DNA from: Planctomycetota bacterium
GTDB lineage: Bacteria > Planctomycetota > B15-G4
Assembly (NCBI GenBank): GCA_052387675.1
Contig: JBQTIY010000007.1
Location: forward strand, 257,544 to 321,543
Reading direction: 5' to 3'
DNA: 64,000 nt
Both the position numbers and the translations under genes were made by a program. Within the stretch, counting starts at the first letter, position 1; each line of letters starts with the position of its first letter. Under the pieces are notes generated by a model, which worked only from the letters and a program-made list of their open reading frames with translations, was not told the origin of the DNA and did no database searches. Shown one piece after another: positions 1 to 12,115 of the stretch.

Positions 1-506
1 TCCCCGGCATGCACGGCTGGGACGTGCTGGAGTCGCTGCGCAGCCGGCCCAACCCGCCGGCGGTGATCTTCGTCACGGCGCGCGACGCGCTCGAAGAGCG
101 GCTGCGCGGACTGCGCTCCGGCGGGGACGACTATCTCGTCAAGCCCTTCGCCTTCGAAGAGCTGCTGGCCCGCATCGAAGCCGTGCTGCGTCGCCGCGGC
201 GCCAGCACGCAGCACGTGGTCGGCGATCTCATCGTGGACCTGCTCGCCGGCACCGCCAGCCGCGCCGGCCGCCCGATCACGCTCACTCCCACGGAGTTCT
301 CGCTGCTCAAGGAGCTCGCCCGGGAGCCGGGCGCGGTGCGCTCGCGCGCTGAGCTGCTGAACGCCGTCTGGGGCATTCACTTCGACCCGGGCACCAATGT
401 TGTGGACGTGCACATTCGGCGCCTGCGCTCCAAGATCGACGACCCCTTCGCCTCCCCACTTCTCCAAACCGTCCGCGGAACAGGCTATGCCCTCCGAGCC
501 GGCTGA
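1..506 (+). CDS. OmpR/PhoB-family response regulator, 5'-truncated by the window edge
   Basis: The frame is open to base 1, and the sequence starts mid-receiver domain (PGMHGWDVL). The receiver C-terminal half is present (GGDDYLVKPFAFEELLARI), followed by a winged-helix output domain (LTPTEFSLLKEL, VDVHIRRLRSKID, TVRGTGYAL). Confidence 0.9.
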   Translation, partial: PGMHGWDVLESLRSRPNPPAVIFVTARDALEERLRGLRSGGDDYLVKPFAFEELLARIEAVLRRRGASTQHVVGDLIVDLLAGTASRAGRPITLTPTEFSLLKELAREPGAVRSRAELLNAVWGIHFDPGTNVVDVHIRRLRSKIDDPFASPLLQTVRGTGYALRAG

Positions 507-2010
507 ACTGCGCTGGTCGCTCACGCGGCGGCTGGCCACCAACTTCGCGGTCATCACGAGCTTGCTGCTGGCCTTCATGGCCTTGGGCACGAGCTGGGCG
601 CTGTACTCGTCGCTGCAGTCCGAAGTGGAAGACTTCCTGCAGCACGAGATTGAAGAGTTCGTGCTGGACCTTCAAGAATCCGACGGCAGCCCGGCCGGGC
701 TGCAAGCCGCCGCCGACGAAATCGCCGGCATCTCGGAGGAGATCGTGTGCGCCTTCCGCGTGCGTGACTCCGCCGGCCGCATCGTGGCGCAGGCCGGCGA
801 CTCGGCGCTGCTCGGTCATTCCGAAGTGCTCACGCCCTCCGGCACGGGTCACCGCACGGCCTCACTGTTCTTCCAAGAGATCTACCTCGTCACCCGGCCG
901 CTGGCCGACACGGACCTCACGGCAGAGATGCTGGCCAACGCCGCCGAGCAGCGCGAGCGCCTCTTCCGCATGCTCATGGGCGCCGGCCTTTGGCTCGGTC
1001 TCGCCGTGGCACTGGCCGGCTTCTTTGGCTGGCTGACCGCTTGGCGCGGCCTGCGCGAGCTGCGCGCGATGGTCAGCCAAGTGCGCGGCATCGCCCGTCC
1101 CACGCGCAACGGCATCCGCCTTGAGAATCCGCCGGTGGAACTGCAGGGCTTGAGCGACGAAGTCAACGCCATGCTCGAGCGCATTGAACAGGGCCTGCGT
1201 GAGATGCAGACCTTCACCGCGGGCTTGGCTCACGAGCTGCGCTCGCCCTTGCAGAACCTCCAGGGCGAAACAGAAGTGGCTCTGCTCGCGGAACGCTCGC
1301 CGGAGGCCTATCGCGACCTGCTGGCCAGCCATCTGGATGAGTTTGCCAGCCTCTCCGATGCCATCGACAACCTCATCGCCTGGTGCCGCACCTACGACCC
1401 CTCGCAACTGAGCGCCGCGCGCGAGCCCTTTGATTTAGCGCAGGCCGCCGAGCTGCGCCTGGCCCGCGAGCGCCGCAGTTCGGCGCGCGCCGGCGTCAGG
1501 CTGGAGCTGACCCGCTCGGGCGACACCGTGCTGCTTGGCGATCGCGAAGGCTGCCTACGCGTGGTGCGCAACCTCGTCGCCAATGCGCTCAACTGGAGCC
1601 CACGCGGCGAGGCCGTGGAAGTCCATGTGGACGGCCTGCCCGGCGTCGTGCGCCTGCGCGTGGACGATCGCGGCCCTGGCATTCCGCCCGCACTCGGCGA
1701 ACGCATCTTCGAGCCCTTCGTGACCACCGCGCCGCGGGTCGGACAGCGCGGCGGCTACGGTCTGGGCCTGGCGATCTGCCGCACGATTGTCGCGCAGCAC
1801 GGCGGACGGCTCTGGTACGAGGCGCGTCCGGGCGGCGGCACCAGCTTCTTCGCCGAGTTCCCGCGCGCAGACTCAGCGCCAGCGCGCCGGCCGGTAAGCC
1901 CAGAGCAGCGGCAGCAGCAGCAGCAGGCTCACCACAGCCGCGAGCGCCTGCACGGGCGGATCGAAGCGCAGATGCGTCACGATCGCTCCGACGAGCAGGC
2001 CCGTGAGTAG
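487..2010 (+). CDS. Sensor histidine kinase (two-TM sensor, HAMP-like linker, HisKA + HATPase_c)
   Basis: An in-frame ATG at 487 overlaps the regulator stop by 20 nt. The H-box is FTAGLAHELRSPL, the N-box is VVRNLVANALNWS and the G-boxes are DDRGPGIP and GGYGLGLAI. The ORF-track start at 397 lies inside the upstream gene. The last ~45 aa are low-complexity (QQQQQ) and antisense to the next gene. Confidence 0.85.
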   Translation: MPSEPAELRWSLTRRLATNFAVITSLLLAFMALGTSWALYSSLQSEVEDFLQHEIEEFVLDLQESDGSPAGLQAAADEIAGISEEIVCAFRVRDSAGRIVAQAGDSALLGHSEVLTPSGTGHRTASLFFQEIYLVTRPLADTDLTAEMLANAAEQRERLFRMLMGAGLWLGLAVALAGFFGWLTAWRGLRELRAMVSQVRGIARPTRNGIRLENPPVELQGLSDEVNAMLERIEQGLREMQTFTAGLAHELRSPLQNLQGETEVALLAERSPEAYRDLLASHLDEFASLSDAIDNLIAWCRTYDPSQLSAAREPFDLAQAAELRLARERRSSARAGVRLELTRSGDTVLLGDREGCLRVVRNLVANALNWSPRGEAVEVHVDGLPGVVRLRVDDRGPGIPPALGERIFEPFVTTAPRVGQRGGYGLGLAICRTIVAQHGGRLWYEARPGGGTSFFAEFPRADSAPARRPVSPEQRQQQQQAHHSRERLHGRIEAQMRHDRSDEQARE

Positions 2011-2253
2011 TGCAGCGCCGAGAAACGCGAGTCCCGGCACGAGCAGCGCCGCGGCGCCCACGAGCTGGCTGATGCCCACCAGCATTCGAAAGCCGTCGGA
2101 GTAGCCCCAGCGACGGAAGTCCTCGGCCATGCGCACGTCGCCGCTGAGGTTCTTAATCGCCAGGAAGACGAAGAAGGCCGCCAGCAGAAGGCGCAAGGCC
2201 AGCAGCGCGCGCGAGGTGCCCAGGCCCTGCTCGGGAGTCAGATGCGTGAGCAT
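1873..2253 (-). CDS. DoxX-family small integral membrane protein
   Basis: 126 aa with 4 predicted TM helices. The pattern LLALRLLLAAFFVFLAIKNL...GISQLVGAAALLVPG is typical of DoxX. The start overlaps the SDR stop by 16 nt. Confidence 0.65.
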   Translation of the reverse strand: MLTHLTPEQGLGTSRALLALRLLLAAFFVFLAIKNLSGDVRMAEDFRRWGYSDGFRMLVGISQLVGAAALLVPGLAFLGAALLTGLLVGAIVTHLRFDPPVQALAAVVSLLLLLPLLWAYRPARWR

Positions 2254-3050
2254 GCGGCCTCCACGGCGAAGGGCTTCATCTGGCGCGACTTGCCGGCCAG
2301 CGCGCGATCGACCAGACGCGGCAGCAGTGCGTTGAGTCGGACAAAAAACGGCTCGGCGCGCCCGAGATAACGGTCCTTGGCGTTGCGCTCGAGCGCTGAG
2401 ACAACCAGCCGCGCCACGACCTCGGGCCGATCGAGCGGCATGCCGGTGGCAGCGGCCATGCGGCCGAAGATCGTGGCCAGTGGCGTGGCGGTGGCGCGTG
2501 GCGCTACGTAGGTGACGCCGATGCCCGAACCTTGCAGCTCACGCCGCAAGGCCTCCGAGAAGCCGCGGATGGCGAACTTGCTGGCGCTGTAGCTCGCGAA
2601 CCAGGGGAAGGCGATCGAGCCGAAGATCGAACCCACATTGACGATGTGGCCCGAGCCCTGCGCCTGGAAGGTCGCCAGCACCTGCTGCGTGAGTAGCACC
2701 GGTGCGACGACGTTGATGCGAAAGGTGGCTTCGATGTCGGCTGGCCGTTCCAGCTCCAACGGTGCGAAGTCCAGCACGCCCGCGTTGTTCACCAGGATGT
2801 CGAGACCGCCCAAGGCCTCGACGGCGCGCCGCACCGTGCGCGGCAGTTCCTCGAGCCGCCCCAGATCGGCAGCCAGGGGCACAGCCTGGGCAGCCAGCGC
2901 GGGCGTCTCCTCGATGAGTCGGCGCAGCGCGGTCTCATCGCGATCGAGCAGCGCCAGGCGCGCCCCGCGTGCGGCCAGTTCGCGCGCCACGCATCGGCCG
3001 ATACCGCCGGCAGCGCCGGTCAAGAGGATCTTGGCTTGGTCGAGCTTCAT
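2238..3050 (-). CDS. Short-chain dehydrogenase/reductase (classical SDR)
   Basis: It has the TGAAGGIGR cofactor motif, NNAG, and the catalytic YSASKFAIRG (YxxxK). There is an ATGA overlap with the upstream ligase gene at 3047-3050. Confidence 0.9.
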   Translation of the reverse strand: MKLDQAKILLTGAAGGIGRCVARELAARGARLALLDRDETALRRLIEETPALAAQAVPLAADLGRLEELPRTVRRAVEALGGLDILVNNAGVLDFAPLELERPADIEATFRINVVAPVLLTQQVLATFQAQGSGHIVNVGSIFGSIAFPWFASYSASKFAIRGFSEALRRELQGSGIGVTYVAPRATATPLATIFGRMAAATGMPLDRPEVVARLVVSALERNAKDRYLGRAEPFFVRLNALLPRLVDRALAGKSRQMKPFAVEAACSRI

Positions 3051-5233
3051 GCACAGGCTCCCAGAGGTGCGCGGCTCGGCTGGGAGGCCGTCGGCAGCGC
3101 ACGGAAAACGTCGCCATAGAGGCGGAAGAAAACGCGGGCGGCATGCAGCACGGCCTGCCGGTCGGCCTCGCTGTCGAGGCGGTTCATGAGGGTTTCGAAG
3201 AAGGCCACGTGGCCTTGGTCGAGCGCACCGTGTGAGCTGAGGTAGCGCACGGCCCCATCCGGCAAGCCGAGTGAACGCTGCAGCCCAGCAGCAGCGCCGG
3301 TCGCGCCGCGCGCCGACACGCCTTCAAGCACATGGACCATGCCGAAGAAGCCCACCGGGTCGCCGCGCAGCACGGTGTCCCAGGCGTAGGCCACCATGAG
3401 TTCGCAGGGCAGGTCGGGCTTCCCGGCCGCGACAGCCTCTGCATCACCGCCGCACGCGGCGATGTCGTCCAGGATCCATTGCTGGTGGCCGGTCTCCTCG
3501 GCGATGTACTCGCCGATCGCGGCCCGCAGCCATTCGTGCCGGTCCGAGAGGCGCGCGCCCGTGGCCATGAGCAGCGGCACGGTGTGCTTCACGTGGTGAT
3601 AGGCCTGCGTGAGGAAGGCCACATAGGCCGGCAGGTCAAGCTCGCCGTGTACGGCGGCGCGCACGAAGGGAATGCGAAAGAAGTCCTCGCGCTGGGCGGC
3701 GGTTTCTGCGCAGAGACGGTCGTGAAAGGTCATGGGCGCTCTCGAGATGTGGGCGGGCAGGGGCGCGGGCAGAGTCAACAGGTGCGGGTAGGCGGTGGCC
3801 ACGGCCGCGCGACGGAGGCGACCGGCCACACTGAGCTGTCCATTGCTGGCGGAGAAGGGCGCGCTCGCCCGCACCCAGTACTCCACGCGGGCGTAATCGG
3901 GCAAACGGGCATTGGCCGAGTCGACGGCGGCCGCTAGCTCGTCATCCGTTGGACCAACATCCGCCGGCACAAGCACAGCGCGCGGTTGCGGCAAGCCATC
4001 CCCCAGCACGCAGGCCGCGGCGACCGCGGGGCTCGTGAGCAGTTCACGCTCCACCCACTCCGGCGAGAGCTTGCGACCGAAGGCTGTGCGCAGCACCGCG
4101 CTCTTGCGCCCGACCAGGCTCAGGTGACCGTGCTCGTCGAAGGCGCCCAGGTCACCTGTGGCCAGCCAGCCGTCACTGCGCAGCGGGGCGGGTTCGCCGC
4201 CCACATAGCCCAGCCACGCGGAACCACGCACGAGGACTTCGCGATCCTCAGCGAGCCGAACTTCCACGTGCGGCAGCGGCCGCCCGACTGTCCCTGCGTG
4301 CCGCGAGTCCGGGCGGTTGAGCGCAACGACTGAACCGGCCTCCGAGAGTCCGTAGCCTTCGAAGACCGGCAGTCCGAGGCGCTGCGCCCGCTCGAGCAGC
4401 TGCAGCGGCACCGGTGCGCCACCGACTCCTAGAAAGCGCAGCGCAGGCAAGCGCACGCCACGCTCAAGCTGCTCAACGATGAGCGCCAAGGTTTGCGGCA
4501 CGAGAATGGCGGTGGTCGCTTGCAGTTCAGCCAGAGAGGCCACGAGCAGGTCGCCGCGCTGCGCGCTGCTGCCGGCGAGGCCGATGCGCGAGGCGGGCGG
4601 CAGCACAACGCGTGCACCGGCCGACAGGCCCCGGTACAGCCCGCCGACGTTCTCGAGCAGCACGCTGAGTGGCAGCAGCGCGACGTGGACATCACTGGGC
4701 CCGATGCCGGTGGCCTGCACCAGCGAGCGGGTCACTTCGAGCAGGCCGACGTGCGACAGGCGCACGCCCTTCGGCTCGCCGGTCGTGCCGGATGTGAAGG
4801 TGACCTTCTCGCCGCCGCGCACCGCACTCGGCAGCGGCTCGGGCAGGCGGGCAAAGGCCAGCCCCTCCCGCAGAGAGACGAGTTCCGCGCCGGGGCCCAG
4901 CAGAGCCTCGGCGCGCGTGACCGCAGCGGCGTCCACGATGAGGCCGTTCAGGCCGGCGACGCCCAGCACATGGCGCAATTGAGCCGTCGTGAAGAAGTGC
5001 GGCAGCGGCACGAGCGCCGCGCCGAGCCGCTGAGCGGCGAGATCGGCCAGTGCCCAAGGCAGGCCATTGTCAGCCAACAAGCCGAGGGCGAGCCGGCCAG
5101 CCGCGAGTTCCTGGGTGCACAGCGTGGCCAGAGCGTCGGCGCACTCGGCAACGCGCCGCTCGCGCTCGGCGCGGTCCCAGACCTGGCCCACGCCGTCGTC
5201 GAGCAAGCCCTGCCAATCAGCCGAGGCGTTCAT
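3047..5233 (-). CDS. Fusion protein: acyl-CoA synthetase-like adenylating domain + C-terminal heme-oxygenase-like (Haem_oxygenas_2/TenA/PqqC-type) putative diiron domain
   Basis: The start is taken at ATG 5233 (MNASADWQ), which forms an ATGA overlap with the upstream stop at 5230; the ORF-track N-terminal 90 aa are Arg-rich shadow sequence. Adenylation motifs are FTSGTTGEPKG, FEGYGLSEAG and WLATGDLG..GHLSLVGRKS. The C-terminal ~220 aa (MTFHDRL...) carry His/carboxylate motifs AYHHVKH, IAEETGHQQW, MVHVLEGVS and HGALDQGHVAFF. There is no stop between the two domains. Confidence 0.8.
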   Translation of the reverse strand: MNASADWQGLLDDGVGQVWDRAERERRVAECADALATLCTQELAAGRLALGLLADNGLPWALADLAAQRLGAALVPLPHFFTTAQLRHVLGVAGLNGLIVDAAAVTRAEALLGPGAELVSLREGLAFARLPEPLPSAVRGGEKVTFTSGTTGEPKGVRLSHVGLLEVTRSLVQATGIGPSDVHVALLPLSVLLENVGGLYRGLSAGARVVLPPASRIGLAGSSAQRGDLLVASLAELQATTAILVPQTLALIVEQLERGVRLPALRFLGVGGAPVPLQLLERAQRLGLPVFEGYGLSEAGSVVALNRPDSRHAGTVGRPLPHVEVRLAEDREVLVRGSAWLGYVGGEPAPLRSDGWLATGDLGAFDEHGHLSLVGRKSAVLRTAFGRKLSPEWVERELLTSPAVAAACVLGDGLPQPRAVLVPADVGPTDDELAAAVDSANARLPDYARVEYWVRASAPFSASNGQLSVAGRLRRAAVATAYPHLLTLPAPLPAHISRAPMTFHDRLCAETAAQREDFFRIPFVRAAVHGELDLPAYVAFLTQAYHHVKHTVPLLMATGARLSDRHEWLRAAIGEYIAEETGHQQWILDDIAACGGDAEAVAAGKPDLPCELMVAYAWDTVLRGDPVGFFGMVHVLEGVSARGATGAAAGLQRSLGLPDGAVRYLSSHGALDQGHVAFFETLMNRLDSEADRQAVLHAARVFFRLYGDVFRALPTASQPSRAPLGACA

Positions 5234-5904
5234 GCGACGTGGCGTGCCAAAAGACGCCCCCGTGCGAAGGCCGCGTTCCACGCGGCCCCACAGGTGTCGA
5301 CCAAGCTTGCGTCGCGCGCGGCAACCGCTCGCATGGCCGCCACCGGCACGGCGGTGAGCCGCGGATCGGTTTCGTAGTAAGTGCCCCAGTCGGAGAGTCG
5401 GCCGCCCAAGCGCCGGCCATCGGCCTCGCCGAGATCTAGGAGTTGCAGGCCCATACGCAGGAAGGCCGCGCGCAGCGCGCGCGTGGCCGTGAATACGGAC
5501 CACTCGACTCCGGCGCCGTCGAGGAAGGCCGCCATGGTGCTGACGAGCGCGCGGCCCAAGCCGGGCGTCTGCCCACTGAGATTGCCGACCTCAGCCAGCA
5601 AACTGCGCGGCACCGCGCGGCCGAGCGCGCGCGAGAGAGCGCTCTCCACCGGCTCATCGAGATACTCCTCCAGAAACATGCGCGCCGGATCGCGGCCGAG
5701 CTGTGCGCCGATGACACCGGCCGGCACCTGGCGCGACACGCCGCTCGGCGCGGCAGCCTCCAGCCCGAGCAGAATCGGGAGCAGGTGCTCGATGCGGGCG
5801 CCGTAGCAGCGGGCGTAGACCTCTCGCACAGTGGCAGCCAGGACGTCGCGCTGCGAGGCGTGGTCAAGGCAGAGCTGCAGGCGCGGGCTTGGGGCGGGAG
5901 CCAT
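5230..5904 (-). CDS. Thermostable-hemolysin (T_hemolysin, GNAT-like fold) family protein
   Basis: It matches my recollection of the delta-VPH family signature: FLEEYLDEPVE, EVGNLSG, WSVFTAT..LRAAFLRMGLQLLDLGEAD, WGTYYETDP. The ATG at 5904 is preferred over the TTG ORF-track start at 5940. Confidence 0.7.
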   Translation of the reverse strand: MAPAPSPRLQLCLDHASQRDVLAATVREVYARCYGARIEHLLPILLGLEAAAPSGVSRQVPAGVIGAQLGRDPARMFLEEYLDEPVESALSRALGRAVPRSLLAEVGNLSGQTPGLGRALVSTMAAFLDGAGVEWSVFTATRALRAAFLRMGLQLLDLGEADGRRLGGRLSDWGTYYETDPRLTAVPVAAMRAVAARDASLVDTCGAAWNAAFARGRLLARHVA

Positions 5905-6007
5905 GGACGGCACTCGCGTGGGAGGCAGGACTGGTGACAACAGGTCTGGTCCTCTTGACGGCAGCAGGTGACACCAAGCTGAGTGACACCTTTGTCATGA
6001 GGCGCGG

Positions 6008-6676
6008 TCATGAGCGCAGCACCGCCAGCGCCGCCACCACGGCGACGGTCAGGAGCGCGCCGCGTTCCACGCGCAGCACGCGCCGCCAGGGATAGGCCGG
6101 CCGAGGCTGGACGGCCGTTTCAGGGGCCGGCGTCAGCGCGGAGGAGGGGCTGCGTGCAGGTCTGCCGCGCGGGATACGCGGCCACCAGCGCGGCACGCGC
6201 AGGCAATACGCTTGGTAGCTCGCGGGGTAGAGCCGTTCTAGCACTCCCTCTTCCCAGAGCACGATGCTGTGATACCAGGCCAGCGCCGCGACGCCGGCGC
6301 AGGGCGCGAGCCAAATCGGGCCGAGCATGAGCACCGTGCCCATCAAACCGCTGCAGTTGGCGAGGTAGAGCGGATTGCGCACGTAGGCGAAGGGACCGTC
6401 TTCGACGAGCACGCGTTGCTCCTGCGCCTTGAGGGCATGCACGCGGGCCGCGCCCCGGATGCTGCGGCAACTCCACAGGCGCACGGCGAGATAGGCGAAC
6501 AGCAGCACACCTCCCGCAGCAATTCCCCAGGCCTGAGCGCCGCCCAGCCACAGCGCCGTCAAGAAAAAAGGCGGGTGAATCCAGCGGCGGCGCTCGAAAA
6601 GGCCCGCGCCCCACTCGCTGGCTGCCGGCACTTCCACGGGAGATTCGGCGGGCGGTGGGCTGAACTGGCTGGGCAT
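6008..6676 (-). CDS. ICMT/PEMT-like membrane methyltransferase, paralog 1
   Basis: It is polytopic and carries GPFAYVRNPLYLAN and VLWEE..L...Y...Y..Y....PR, typical of the isoprenylcysteine carboxyl / phospholipid methyltransferase family. It has an extra C-terminal YPWRRV + TM tail. A paralog lies at 30186-30818. Confidence 0.75.
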   Translation of the reverse strand: MPSQFSPPPAESPVEVPAASEWGAGLFERRRWIHPPFFLTALWLGGAQAWGIAAGGVLLFAYLAVRLWSCRSIRGAARVHALKAQEQRVLVEDGPFAYVRNPLYLANCSGLMGTVLMLGPIWLAPCAGVAALAWYHSIVLWEEGVLERLYPASYQAYCLRVPRWWPRIPRGRPARSPSSALTPAPETAVQPRPAYPWRRVLRVERGALLTVAVVAALAVLRS

Positions 6677-6809
6677 CGGAGGCTCCGGCGTTTGGTCAGC
6701 GCCGGAAGTCCGGTGCTGACGTCACGCATTGAGCCCTGAATCCCCGCGCGAAGCCCGTTAAGGCTTCGTCATCTTCGAAGGGGCCGGCTCAGCCCGAGAG
6801 CGCGCCGCG

Positions 6810-7802
6810 TCAGCGCGAGAGCGCGCGCGTGATGTGCGGCAGCGAAGCCTCGTAGCGATAGCTCGTGCCGAAGTGGCCATCGTCGAACTCTTCGTGCAGC
6901 ACGGTGACGCCGACAGCGCGCAGCGCCGCTGCGAGTTGGCGCGCGCCGTAGTGCAACTGGTACTCGTCGCGCGTGCCGGCATCGAGGTAAACGAGACGGA
7001 AGTCGCGCAGGCCCGGGCCTTCGCGCGCAGCACGCTCCACCGGATCGCAAGCCAGCCAGCGCGCCCACGTCTGCGGCAGCAGCCGGCCGGTGCGCGGCTC
7101 GAAGGGCAGCGCCACGCCCAGCGGCTGCGCGGCGTCGGGCGAATACGCGGCCGCCATGGCGAGCACATTCATGGCCAAGACGAGCGGCGTCGTCTTGCGC
7201 GGCGCCGCTTCGAAGACTTCGACAAAGGCGCGCGCATCGCGGCAGTGTTCGAGCTGCGCGAGCAGCTTGGGGAAGTCGGGCTTGTAGCAGAGCTCGAAGC
7301 CCGCATCACCCGCGTGGCTCGCCAGTGCGGAGAAGAGCTCGGGATGCGCGAGGGAGAGATGCAGCGCGCCGTAGCCGCCCGAAGACTTGCCCATGAGCCC
7401 GCGCCGCTCGCGCCGGCCACCGGCACCGAACTCGGCCTCGACGCGCGGCAGGAGTTCCTGAAGCAGGTGGTCCTCGTAGCGACCCGTGGCTGGGCTGTTG
7501 CGGTACTGACTGCCTCCCAGCCGCGTGAAGGCGTCGGGGAAGGCGAAGACTGCCGGCGCGACGCGCCCGGCCGCCAACAGCCGCTCGTAGCGCTCCGGGA
7601 AGGACGGTTCCCAGGGCGTGCCCCGCAGTTGTCCGGCGCCCACCCCGGTGAAACCGGCCAGCACGAAGATGAGCGGCAGCCCGCGCGGATCGCGGTCCGG
7701 CGGCAGGTACACGGGCAGTTCACGGCGCGTCGGATCGCCCAGCGGATTGCCGGCCAGCACCGCACTGTCCACCACGAGCGTCTGCACGCGGCCTTCGATC
7801 AC
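6810..7802 (-). CDS. Alpha/beta-hydrolase of the putative-esterase family (enterochelin-esterase / S-formylglutathione-hydrolase-like)
   Basis: It has a GTG start, PVYLPPD...[11 protein letters not shown], the nucleophile elbow [10 protein letters not shown], and a C-terminal DDGHF histidine region. Confidence 0.75.
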
Positions 7803-7858
7803 GGCGCAGAGCCTACCCTCTTACCTTGTCAGGGATCCCCGGATATCCTGCCGCCGCC

Positions 7859-7888
7859 GACCGCCAACGTCTGGCGGTCACTTTTTTT
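7859..7888 (+). terminator. Intrinsic-terminator-like hairpin + T7 tract inside the csp leader (possible attenuator)
   Basis: The stem is GACCGCCA (7859-7866), the loop ACGTC, and the closing stem TGGCGGTC (7872-7879), followed by AC and TTTTTTT (7882-7888). It lies 25 nt upstream of the csp ATG. A T7 run is conspicuous in ~70% GC DNA. Confidence 0.4.
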
Positions 7889-7912
7889 CATCAGGTTGTT
7901 CAGGAGTTGTCC

Positions 7913-8125
7913 ATGCCAGTCGGACGTGTCAAGTGGTTCAGTGATGAGAAGGGTTACGGTTTCATCGAAGTTGAGGGTCGCGAGAAGGACGTGTTCGTCC
8001 ATTACAGCGACATCAAGGGCGATGGCTTCCGCACCCTCGATGAAGGTGCCAAGGTCGAGTTCAACATCGAGCCCGGCAAGAACGGCGACCGCGCCAAGGA
8101 CGTGATGAAGGTGGAGGCCGCCTGA
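7913..8125 (+). CDS. csp: Cold-shock protein (CspA family, S1-like CSD)
   Basis: [18 protein letters not shown] (RNP1) and DVFVHYS (RNP2) are present in a 70-aa protein. A CAGGAG RBS sits 6 nt upstream of the ATG at 7913. The ORF-track start at 7826 is an upstream extension. Confidence 0.95.
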
Positions 8126-8143
8126 CCACCGATTGCGCAGCGG

Positions 8144-8180
8144 GCCCCGGCGTCGCAAGACGCCGGGGCTCGCAGTGTTT
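8144..8180 (+). terminator. Probable csp terminator
   Basis: An 11-bp perfect stem GCCCCGGCGTC / GACGCCGGGGC with a GCAA tetraloop (8144-8169) is followed by the weak T-containing tail TCGCAGTGTTTCT. Confidence 0.5.
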
Positions 8181-8241
8181 CTGGGGTGCCCGCGGTACCG
8201 TGTCGGGCGCCTCAATCCCCCACCCCGCGTAGGAGCCCTCC

Positions 8242-8667
8242 ATGCCCATCGAGAATCTCGATCCGCCGGCCGCGCACAAGGCCATGAGTCAGGATGCCCG
8301 CCACGTCTTCCTCGACGTGCGCACGGTTCAGGAGTTTGAAGCCGGTCATCCGCGCGGCGCGCTCAACGTGCCCTGGTCAGAACTCGATCCGGCCACCGGC
8401 CAGATGAGCAAGAACCCGCACTTTCTGAGCACGGTGGCCAAGCACGTCGGCAAAGACCGCACCGTCTATGTGTCCTGCCAGGCCGGCGTGCGCTCGCTGA
8501 ACGCCTGCAACGCCCTCGAGCCCGCCGGCTACGCCAAGCTGGTCAACGTGACCTCGGGCTACGGCGGCCGCCGCGACCCGAGCGGCGGCATCGTGATTCC
8601 CGGCTGGCGCGACGCCGGCCTGCCCATCGAGCAAGGCCCGTCGGACTACCCCAAGCTCAAGGCCTGA
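8242..8667 (+). CDS. Single-domain rhodanese-like sulfurtransferase
   Basis: It has FLDVRTVQEFEAGHPRGALNVP and the active-site loop VSCQAGVRS (CxxGxR). An AGGAG RBS is at 8231. Confidence 0.85.
   Translation: MPIENLDPPAAHKAMSQDARHVFLDVRTVQEFEAGHPRGALNVPWSELDPATGQMSKNPHFLSTVAKHVGKDRTVYVSCQAGVRSLNACNALEPAGYAKLVNVTSGYGGRRDPSGGIVIPGWRDAGLPIEQGPSDYPKLKA

Positions 8668-9907: not shown

Positions 9908-12115
<2,208 letters not shown>

Follow-up and report, generated by a model that had tools for sequence, protein, structure and literature searches.

An operon of the delta-VPH/T_hemolysin type in a Planctomycetota bacterium, a candidate biosynthetic pathway to a small amphiphile that is acylated and tailored by oxidation

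We analysed a 64-kb window of DNA from the metagenome-assembled genome (MAG) of a Planctomycetota bacterium (assembly GCA_052387675.1, contig JBQTIY010000007.1, positions 257,544 to 321,543; G+C ~70%), and within it an operon on the minus strand that is centred on a protein of the T_hemolysin family. All positions given here are coordinates within this window, where the operon occupies 1873-6676. Read in the direction of transcription, it consists of five open reading frames (ORFs) encoding a membrane methyltransferase, the T_hemolysin protein, a fusion of an ANL adenylate-forming ligase with a heme-oxygenase-like (HO-like) domain, a short-chain dehydrogenase/reductase (SDR) and a small DoxX_2 protein (Table 1). 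Three of the junctions are overlaps that we read directly from the DNA. The T_hemolysin and fusion genes share an ATGA (sequence GCATGAAC at 5233/5230), the fusion and SDR genes share another (sequence GCATGAAG at 3050/3047), and the SDR and DoxX_2 genes overlap by 16 nt (ATGCTCACGCATCTGA, at 2253/2238). The initial annotation of this DNA had described a chain of five minus-strand genes with the same boundaries and overlaps, and the reading of ORFs and junctions bore it out. NCBI holds proteins identical to the 728-aa ("MAG: AMP-binding protein") and 224-aa ("MAG: thermostable hemolysin") products, from a Planctomycetota bacterium. A promoter scan of positions 1600-8300 found none, and terminator-like sites occurred at the background rate. 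Rfam (gathering threshold) and tRNA scans of the whole window returned no family and no tRNA gene.

The family assignments that had been proposed for the locus (PF12261, PF00501, PF14518, PF00106 and PF04140/PF04191) were all recovered above cut-off with hmmscan. The T_hemolysin protein matches PF12261 over profile positions 5-172 of 174 (E 6.9e-45, 153.4 bits against a cut-off of 27), the ligase matches PF00501 (3.5e-42) and PF23562 (AMP-binding_C_3, 1.6e-05), and the HO-like domain matches PF14518 (1e-29) at residues 539-706 of the fusion. The short motifs that had been picked out in the 728-aa translation, TSGTTGEPKG, GYGLSE, GDLG, HHVKH, EETGH, HVLEG and HGALDQGH, are all present. The SDR is of the classical type, with the motifs TGAAGGIGR, NNAG and YSASK read in its translation, and the NCBIfam model whose cut-off it exceeds, NF006565, is an unnamed SDR equivalog. 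The fifth protein had been called DoxX; it scores just under the cut-off of that family (PF07681) and belongs by its match to DoxX_2 (PF13564). NCBIfam has no model for T_hemolysin or DoxX_2.

The same genes recur in the same order in many other genomes. In a scan of GTDB representative genomes, relatives of the HO-like domain turned up in at least 509 species, and the window proteins were mapped onto 80 returned loci; the core genes were counted in the 70 loci with enough flanking sequence, and the downstream genes in the 62 loci with at least 4.6 kb. The genes for T_hemolysin, ligase, HO-like protein and SDR were complete and collinear on one strand in 69 of the 70, and the order in the window agrees. 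The SDR gene followed the HO-like gene in the same proportion of loci (69/70). Because dozens of genomes repeat an identical gene order, the operon lies far beyond chance. The statement in the initial annotation that these four families co-occur as separate genes in Proteobacteria was thereby confirmed, and the RefSeq names given to the operon genes are generic only. None of the outcomes that the initial annotation had listed as grounds against its reading was encountered. Carriers include Pseudomonas nitroreducens, P. soli, P. oryzihabitans and P. jinjuensis, Microbulbifer, Massilia, Hahella, Marinobacterium, Methylophaga, Polynucleobacter, Zetaproteobacteria and Gallionellaceae. The lone exception to the complete core is a Zetaproteobacteria MAG (L031, ~10001-11466), which has the HO-like and SDR genes and no detectable T_hemolysin or ligase gene upstream.

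In the nearest relatives of the window (loci L001 and L003-L005), T_hemolysin, AMP-binding, Haem_oxygenas_2, SDR and DoxX_2 proteins are encoded by separate, coupled genes. One further locus, L006, is 100% identical in its DNA and comes from the same organism, and so is not an independent check. Hundreds of genomes already have this type of operon in their annotation, with no function given for it. What the window adds is a Planctomycetota variant with DoxX_2, an independent ligase-HO fusion and a lineage-specific methyltransferase neighbour.

The position after the SDR gene differs between lineages. In 54 of the 62 loci it is taken by a ~215-aa protein with a signal peptide, weak tetratricopeptide repeat (TPR) matches and the motif YTSLGSLYYQVPGWPIGFGDD. 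DoxX_2 was found after the SDR solely in Planctomycetota-type loci (L001, L002, L003, L004 and L025). A search of the whole 64-kb window found no TPR-like homologue, and DoxX_2 fills that slot; the idea that the TPR-like gene had been placed elsewhere in the window was rejected by the same search. DoxX had been counted as a member of the pathway. The gene is indeed there, as a Planctomycetota-type accessory in the slot of the proteobacterial periplasmic TPR protein.

Table 1. Features of the operon, of its surroundings in the window and of related loci (positions in the window unless a locus is named)
Feature	Position	Strand	Basis or remark
T_hemolysin (PF12261), 224 aa, predicted GNAT-fold acyl-transfer synthase	5230..5904	-	Pfam, AlphaFold2 (AF2), Foldseek
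Ligase-HO fusion, 728 aa	3047..5233	-	ORF
ANL adenylate-forming ligase, residues 1-500 of fusion	3734..5233	-	PF00501, PF23562, motifs
Ligase/HO junction: 16-codon linker, internal ATG 3733-3731, relic ATGA	3730..3781	-	junction reading
HO-like (PF14518, Haem_oxygenas_2) predicted dimetal oxidase, residues 501-728	3047..3733	-	Pfam, AF2, Foldseek
Classical SDR, 270 aa	2238..3050	-	PF00106 4.3e-51; NF006565 271 bits vs cut-off 238
DoxX_2 small integral membrane protein, 126 aa	1873..2253	-	PF13564 2.9e-16, 59.9 bits vs cut-off 26.3
OmpR-type response regulator, 5' end cut by window start	9..506	+	Response_reg, Trans_reg_C
Sensor histidine kinase, two transmembrane segments flanking ~130-aa periplasmic region	487..2010	+	HisKA, HATPase_c
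PEMT/ICMT-family membrane methyltransferase, 222 aa	6008..6676	-	PF04191, PF04140
PF00756 'putative esterase'	6810..7802	-	PF00756 3.2e-17; upstream, outside conserved core
~215-aa TPR-like protein	L088 10831-11469; L089 9510-10172; L087 11632-12273; L137 7502-8122		RefSeq 'hypothetical protein'
Cupredoxin/FTR1/hypothetical trio	L089 12252-14121; L137 10115-11860; 16 further loci		

The T_hemolysin family comprises 2,250 representative clusters at 50% identity, of which the 150 top-scoring are ~180-300 aa long. Searches of the PDB with the single sequence and with a profile gave no usable solved relative, and a comparison with Pfam at E up to 10 returned nothing beyond PF12261, including neither PF00765 (LuxI) nor PF13444 (FeeM/OlsB). 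We compared an AF2 model of the protein (pLDDT 90.1) with solved structures using Foldseek. The best matches were the CoA-dependent acyl-homoserine lactone synthases MesI, BjaI and RpaI, the N-acyl amino acid synthase FeeM and the classical LuxI-type synthases TofI, LasI and EsaI (E ~1e-5, TM-score ~0.5-0.65), with ordinary GNAT acetyltransferases ranking lower. The predicted fold is therefore in line with the initial annotation, which had placed this protein in a GNAT-like fold nearest to acyl-transfer signal synthases. A T_hemolysin homologue has been described as having no signal peptide (PMC4046660). Because of its fold, the missing signal peptide, the coupling to the ligase gene and the occasional fusion to the ligase, T_hemolysin is probably a cytoplasmic acyl-transfer enzyme and not a toxin. 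We infer that an amphiphilic, heat-stable product is a plausible source of the 'thermostable haemolysis'.

The HO-like domain was modelled with AF2 on the basis of 32 homologues (pLDDT 92.2). The model has the seven-helix HO-like fold, and Foldseek matched it to the dimetal pABA synthase CADD (TM-score 0.80), the uncharacterised structural-genomics protein 3DDE (0.78) and UndA (0.76), and also to heme oxygenases and TenA proteins. In a profile alignment with CADD, E79/E80 fall on E81, E137 on E142, H168 on H174, D172 on D178 and H175 on H181, CADD residues that, from the literature on that protein, we take to be metal ligands. The presumed sixth ligand is H83, part of an invariant EExGH motif and one turn of the helix ahead of W86, the residue to which CADD H88 aligns. 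Across 32 stand-alone and 22 fused homologues, E80, H83, E137, H168, D172, H175 and H47 are invariant and H46 is at least nearly so, while E79 is retained by 90% or more of the fused homologues. The modelled fold and this conservation support the earlier assignment of the domain to the heme-oxygenase-like dimetal oxidases (HDOs), with a complete set of three histidines and three carboxylates at a predicted metal site. Among 6,508 scored homologues, the best 120 are 58-74% identical, all stand-alone and 215-257 aa long. An HDO subfamily that is physically coupled to an adenylating enzyme is a context undescribed for characterised HDOs, and we regard it as a lead.

The ligase carries the motifs A3 (TSGTTGxPKG), A5 (GYGLSE), A7 (TGD) and A8 (GR), all of them invariant in 22 fused homologues. 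Its solved relatives are all CoA ligases, of the oxalyl, o-succinylbenzoate and fatty-acid types (E ~1e-24 to 1e-19). No substrate-specific equivalog was found for it in NCBIfam, where 94 of 94 matches lay far under their cut-offs and the best reached 142 bits against 476. The product of the pathway had been called lipid-derived, which was an overstatement, the ligase being tied to no one substrate.

A two-component system stands next to the operon on the plus strand (Table 1). The kinase gene runs towards the operon and shares 138 nt (1873-2010) with the 3' end of DoxX_2. Beyond HATPase_c, its final ~45 residues are of low complexity (…PEQRQQQQQAHHSRERL…) and may reflect read-through as far as the next stop and not functional sequence. 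Among the 62 loci with sufficient downstream sequence, a response regulator was found at 38 and a kinase at 39, and both were present together with the TPR-like gene at 34. In Gallaecimonas and Microbulbifer, the ~215-aa protein past the SDR is followed by an OmpR-type regulator and then by a kinase with 2CSK_N, HAMP and HisKA domains, and in Variovorax, as in the window, the operon and the two-component genes are transcribed towards each other. At another Planctomycetota locus (L025), the regulator and kinase are 61% and 46% identical to those of the window and lie on the opposite side of the cluster in divergent orientation. The adjacency has therefore been kept through rearrangements. Contig L087, which encodes a triple fusion, has the ~215-aa protein and no adjacent regulator or kinase. 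A connection of this kind has been noted in V. parahaemolyticus, where the delta-VPH locus was linked to the two-component gene VP1735 (PMC10469919); VP1729, VP1731 and VP1735 are linked in this organism. We regard the link to an OmpR-type two-component system across phyla, which the initial annotation missed, as newly recognised and as the most informative lead that the genomic context offers. Directly after the kinase gene, 18 loci, mostly from marine Gammaproteobacteria, carry genes for a cupredoxin, an FTR1-type iron permease and a hypothetical protein, which suggests an iron connection of the two-component system in some lineages.

The ligase and HO-like parts of the window protein meet at a junction that retains traces of a two-gene arrangement. 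In the alignment with two-gene relatives, stand-alone HO homologues begin at the in-frame Met501 (ATG 3733-3731). The TGA of the junction ATGA (3732-3730) is out of frame, and alternative-frame TGAs are found at 3777-3775 and 3732-3730. An ATGA stop-start overlap is also present at other operon junctions and at the ligase/HO junction of the close relative L001. The fused and two-gene states are one net 1-nt frameshift apart, in a C-rich stretch of 42 nt (3776-3735), and the fusion in the window stems either from a genuine mutation of recent date or from an erroneous indel in the MAG.

Fusion of the two domains is common elsewhere. The initial annotation had treated it as a distinctive trait of this locus, a view that fails on the more than 100 clusters of proteins that combine PF00501 and PF14518. 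Almost all of the best 120 full-length matches to the window protein are such fusions (644-754 aa, 43-54% identity), with carriers that include Gallaecimonas, Bradyrhizobium, Ramlibacter and Modicisalibacter; in Pseudoalteromonas shioyasakiensis a 719-aa ligase-HO fusion is annotated. One 943-aa protein (P0194) is a triple fusion of T_hemolysin, ligase and HO-like domain. The idea that this locus alone has the fusion was accordingly rejected. Among the loci with readable junctions, 119 have separate genes and 5 were flagged as fused, of which 3 are truly in the same frame (L077, L087 and L088). The closest relatives of both halves (HO part 59-74% identical, ligase 62-64%) are unfused, and the window fusion therefore arose separately from the proteobacterial ones. 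A metagenome scan with the fusion protein returned no relative above ~60% identity for a DNA-level comparison of the junction.

These observations bear on whether the window fusion was created during assembly by an indel of 1 nt in this C-rich stretch, in which case the operon would be real all the same. An artefact of this kind would account for the exact overlap of the out-of-frame TGA with the internal ATG, which resembles the other operon junctions and that of L001. It would also be in keeping with the CCC and CCCC runs in 3776-3735, the unfused state of the closest relatives of each half, the mere 3 clear same-frame fusions against 119 separate pairs in the sampled loci, and a source that is a MAG. 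Set against this is a relative from another sample (JGI 3300078620), whose T_hemolysin is 83% identical and whose downstream ORF runs for at least 606 aa and is still open at the end of the contig. An ORF of that length exceeds any stand-alone ligase (501-526 aa), and fusions of both domains are viable and common in other genomes. The Logan assembly of the same organism (L006) is identical to the window in an overlap that does not take in the junction. On the strength of the open ORF of at least 606 aa, we therefore rate an assembly artefact as rather improbable.

The first gene of the chain and the genes upstream of it stand apart from this conserved core. The methyltransferase matches PF04191 (2.9e-11, 44.2 bits, cut-off 25) and, narrowly, PF04140 (4e-05, 24.4 bits, cut-off 24), and keeps the RNPLY and EEGVLERLY..Y..Y motifs. 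Against the NCBIfam model of protein-S-isoprenylcysteine O-methyltransferase (ICMT; isopcys_mtase, NF040696) it reaches 31.4 bits where the cut-off is 160, and the solved ICMT 5V7P was matched at E 0.8. The NF040696 score rules out an ICMT ortholog, leaving a member of the broad PEMT/ICMT superfamily, and with this margin to the equivalog the methyl-esterification suggested in the initial annotation was speculation. The gene was absent from all 80 genome loci and from the syntenic L003, and no relative was found among the metagenome contigs scanned, so the methyltransferase is no conserved partner as had been supposed. Its one further copy is in L006, the identical DNA of the same organism. 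It is a lineage-specific neighbour of the operon and a putative member of the pathway at most. That it adds a methyl group to the product in this organism only is possible yet doubtful. The esterase upstream of it is 70% identical to a protein at the equivalent position in L003-L005 and was not seen at the remaining loci. It forms part of a block that is syntenic with L003-L005 and contains a rhodanese gene (8242-8667, plus strand), a cold-shock gene (within 7826-8125, plus strand) and the esterase gene (7802-6810, minus strand). Relative to these loci, the PEMT-like gene is the sole insertion between esterase and T_hemolysin.

Starting from the gene content, coupling, conservation, predicted folds, conserved ligand set and two-component linkage described above, we lean on balance towards reading the locus as the Planctomycetota version of the delta-VPH/T_hemolysin operon, whose enzymes together would build a small amphiphile that is acylated and tailored by oxidation. 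The chemical steps, substrates, export and signalling role in what follows are proposed on this basis. The ANL ligase would convert a carboxylic acid, in all likelihood hydrophobic and perhaps a fatty acid, first to the acyl-AMP and then to the acyl-CoA. T_hemolysin would transfer the acyl group to an amine-bearing acceptor, for example an amino acid. The HO-like domain, as a dimetal oxidase that activates O2, and the SDR would then act on the acyl chain or on the acceptor; hydroxylation, desaturation, N-oxygenation and the interconversion of alcohol and ketone are the candidate reactions. The enzymes would hand intermediates to each other, because ligase-HO and T_hemolysin-ligase-HO fusions recur. 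The product may leave the cytoplasm or enter the membrane, where DoxX_2 (the TPR protein in Proteobacteria) could act on it, bind it or help to sense it, and the periplasm-sensing OmpR-type two-component system may sense the product or control its synthesis. Heat-stable haemolysis would come from the lipid-like product.

Several observations weigh against this biosynthetic reading. The fold match of T_hemolysin is moderate (TM-score ~0.5, rmsd 4-6 Å) and has no counterpart at the level of sequence. In the HO-like domain, H88 of CADD aligns to W86 and not to a histidine. The ligase may have atypical chemistry. Long-chain acyl-CoA synthetases have a catalytic A10 lysine; in the corresponding region of the window ligase (residues ~460-476, located by reading motifs and not by structural alignment) the canonical lysine is missing and a conserved arginine in NGRLRR is found instead. 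The 22 fused homologues read NG(x)…(A/N)GRLRR here, with G471/R472 conserved and no conserved lysine. As to the two-component system, the closest relatives L001 and L003 have none within 9 kb, and the kinase of the window resembles the proteobacterial ones in the kinase core and not in the sensor domain. A literature search on PF12261, T_hemolysin, delta-VPH and VP1729-VP1734 found no biochemical characterisation, and no member of this operon type is known to have an assigned product, substrate or activity. Cloned delta-VPH genes of V. parahaemolyticus and V. cholerae gave haemolysis in lysates and supernatants, and the V. cholerae work attributes it to the protein itself, according to the paper that cites it (PMC4046660).

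A more specific form of the biosynthetic reading would make the product an oxidised acyl-amide or acyl-ester autoinducer of a widespread signalling circuit. A LuxI/FeeM-like synthase would be served by its own ligase, HDO and SDR would tailor the signal, a dedicated two-component system would detect it with help from the TPR or DoxX_2 protein, and haemolysis would be a by-product. We consider this version unlikely as it stands.

The same enzymes could instead serve in catabolism or detoxification. The ligase would make the CoA ester of an exogenous acid, T_hemolysin would conjugate it to an amino acid, the oxidase and SDR would degrade or modify it, and the two-component system would sense the substrate. 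A CoA ligase paired with a GNAT N-acyltransferase follows an established conjugation logic (PMC8003330), as in mammalian ACSM and glycine N-acyltransferase; the solved relatives of the ligase, all CoA ligases, fit it, as does the variation of the flanking genes between genomes. A degradative function finds no echo in the gene content of the examined loci, where no transporter, thiolase, hydratase, beta-oxidation or ring-cleavage gene is conserved with the core. Strict conservation of four genes, with fusions across phyla, suggests one fixed product, and the best fold matches of T_hemolysin are signal and lipid synthases and not detoxifying GNATs. A variant of the operon in Serratia, described below, has an efflux pump and not an importer, and is under RsmA control shared with secondary metabolites. 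We hold catabolism or detoxification to be improbable.

Less probable still is a metal-linked sub-case of biosynthesis, in which the operon would make an amphiphilic metal-binding lipid (e.g. an N-acyl hydroxamate) or modify the envelope under an iron-responsive two-component system. Several HDOs, among them SznF and HrmI/BelK, are N-oxygenases, which counts in its favour, although by sequence N-oxygenase chemistry cannot here be told from other HDO chemistries. The cupredoxin/FTR1/hypothetical trio at 18 loci (Microbulbifer, Methylophaga, Pseudoalteromonas and HTCC2207 included) and the ZnuA and ABC-3 genes upstream in L087 also favour it, yet the iron-transport trio occurs in a minority of loci and is missing from the window. 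A further point in its favour is that iron-oxidising Zetaproteobacteria and Gallionellaceae supply many of the nearest HO homologues. Against it, the loci of these iron oxidisers are the ones that have no two-component system, and no TonB receptor or siderophore-export gene is conserved with the operon. Finally, the literal annotation of the PF12261 protein as a heat-stable cytolysin among unrelated housekeeping genes, for which the haemolysis conferred by cloned delta-VPH genes speaks (summarised in PMC4046660), is very improbable, and a toxin was rejected as a candidate on fold, coupling, fusions and host range: the protein lacks a signal peptide, has a confidently predicted cytoplasmic-type GNAT fold unlike that of pore-forming toxins, is translationally coupled and in P0194 even fused to the ligase, and occurs in free-living iron oxidisers, methylotrophs and Planctomycetota with no host to lyse.

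Genome papers on Vibrio, Aeromonas and other organisms count PF12261 proteins among the virulence factors, as haemolysins. If the biosynthetic reading is true, this common annotation is a misnomer, and a widespread metabolite, maybe a signal or an envelope lipid, would await identification. Judged by its HO-like relatives, the pathway would occur in at least 509 species, which include pathogens, iron oxidisers and Planctomycetota. The natural ligase-HO and triple fusions offer convenient entry points for biochemistry. The 'thermostable hemolysin' is probably a synthase, and we put this forward as a lead for experiment and not as established fact.

Among known systems, the delta-VPH locus of V. 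parahaemolyticus and V. cholerae (VP1729-VP1735) and the loci of Variovorax boronicumulans (RZE79_RS33010-32980) and Pseudoalteromonas shioyasakiensis (KQP93_RS19345-19320) represent the same operon. They share with the window the order of T_hemolysin, AMP-binding protein, iron-containing redox enzyme and SDR, together with an OmpR-type two-component system. They differ from it in having the periplasmic TPR-like protein in place of DoxX_2 and no PEMT-like methyltransferase.

The nearest biochemical parallels for the proposed acyl transfer are the systems of BjaI, RpaI and MesI, in which a ligase makes an unusual acyl-CoA and a GNAT-fold synthase couples the acyl group to an amine. T_hemolysin has no sequence similarity to these synthases (TM-score ~0.5), and where they work with a LuxR receptor the window has a two-component system; the annotated genes around the operon loci included none of the LuxR type. 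FeeM (PDB 2G0B) gave the best rmsd (4.3-4.8 Å) and the best target-normalised TM-score (0.60-0.66) among the top matches, again with no sequence similarity. FeeM makes surfactant-like molecules, namely long-chain N-acyl amino acids, and by analogy a product of this type would explain heat-stable haemolysis. FeeM uses acyl-ACP and has no partner ligase, and the accessory enzymes of the two systems differ.

For the HO-like domain, CADD (1RCW, 8VA9), UndA (6P5Q), MboA (9YPI) and 3DDE (Sden_3740) have the same seven-helix fold (TM-score 0.76-0.80), and 3DDE and MboA also have the EExGH motif. The domain stands apart from characterised HDOs in its low identity to them (at most ~20%), an extra invariant H46/H47 pair, a first-helix histidine placed one turn earlier than in CADD, and its fusion or coupling to an ANL ligase. 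The neighbourhood as a whole recalls the rpf system of Xanthomonas (RpfB ligase, RpfF, RpfC/RpfG) and the phc system of Ralstonia (PhcB methyltransferase, PhcS/PhcR), each of which combines a synthase with a two-component sensor. In these systems, fatty-acid-handling enzymes, a CoA ligase or a methyltransferase among them, stand beside a sensor kinase and a regulator, an arrangement like that of the operon; the protein families are unrelated, and the likeness is one of analogy only.

A further variant is known from Serratia sp. ATCC 39006, where or1352-or1355 encode a T_hemolysin homologue, an AMP-ligase, a TauD/TfdA dioxygenase and a Bcr/CflA efflux pump (PMC4046660). This was the most strongly induced operon in an rsmA mutant (184-fold), and it is regulated by RsmA alongside secondary metabolites (PMC4046660). 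Unlike the window, it has a TauD oxygenase instead of the HO-like domain and an efflux pump, with no SDR reported. By analogy, the Serratia variant suggests a core synthase pair of T_hemolysin and ligase that can be combined with interchangeable oxygenases and that would make an exported product.

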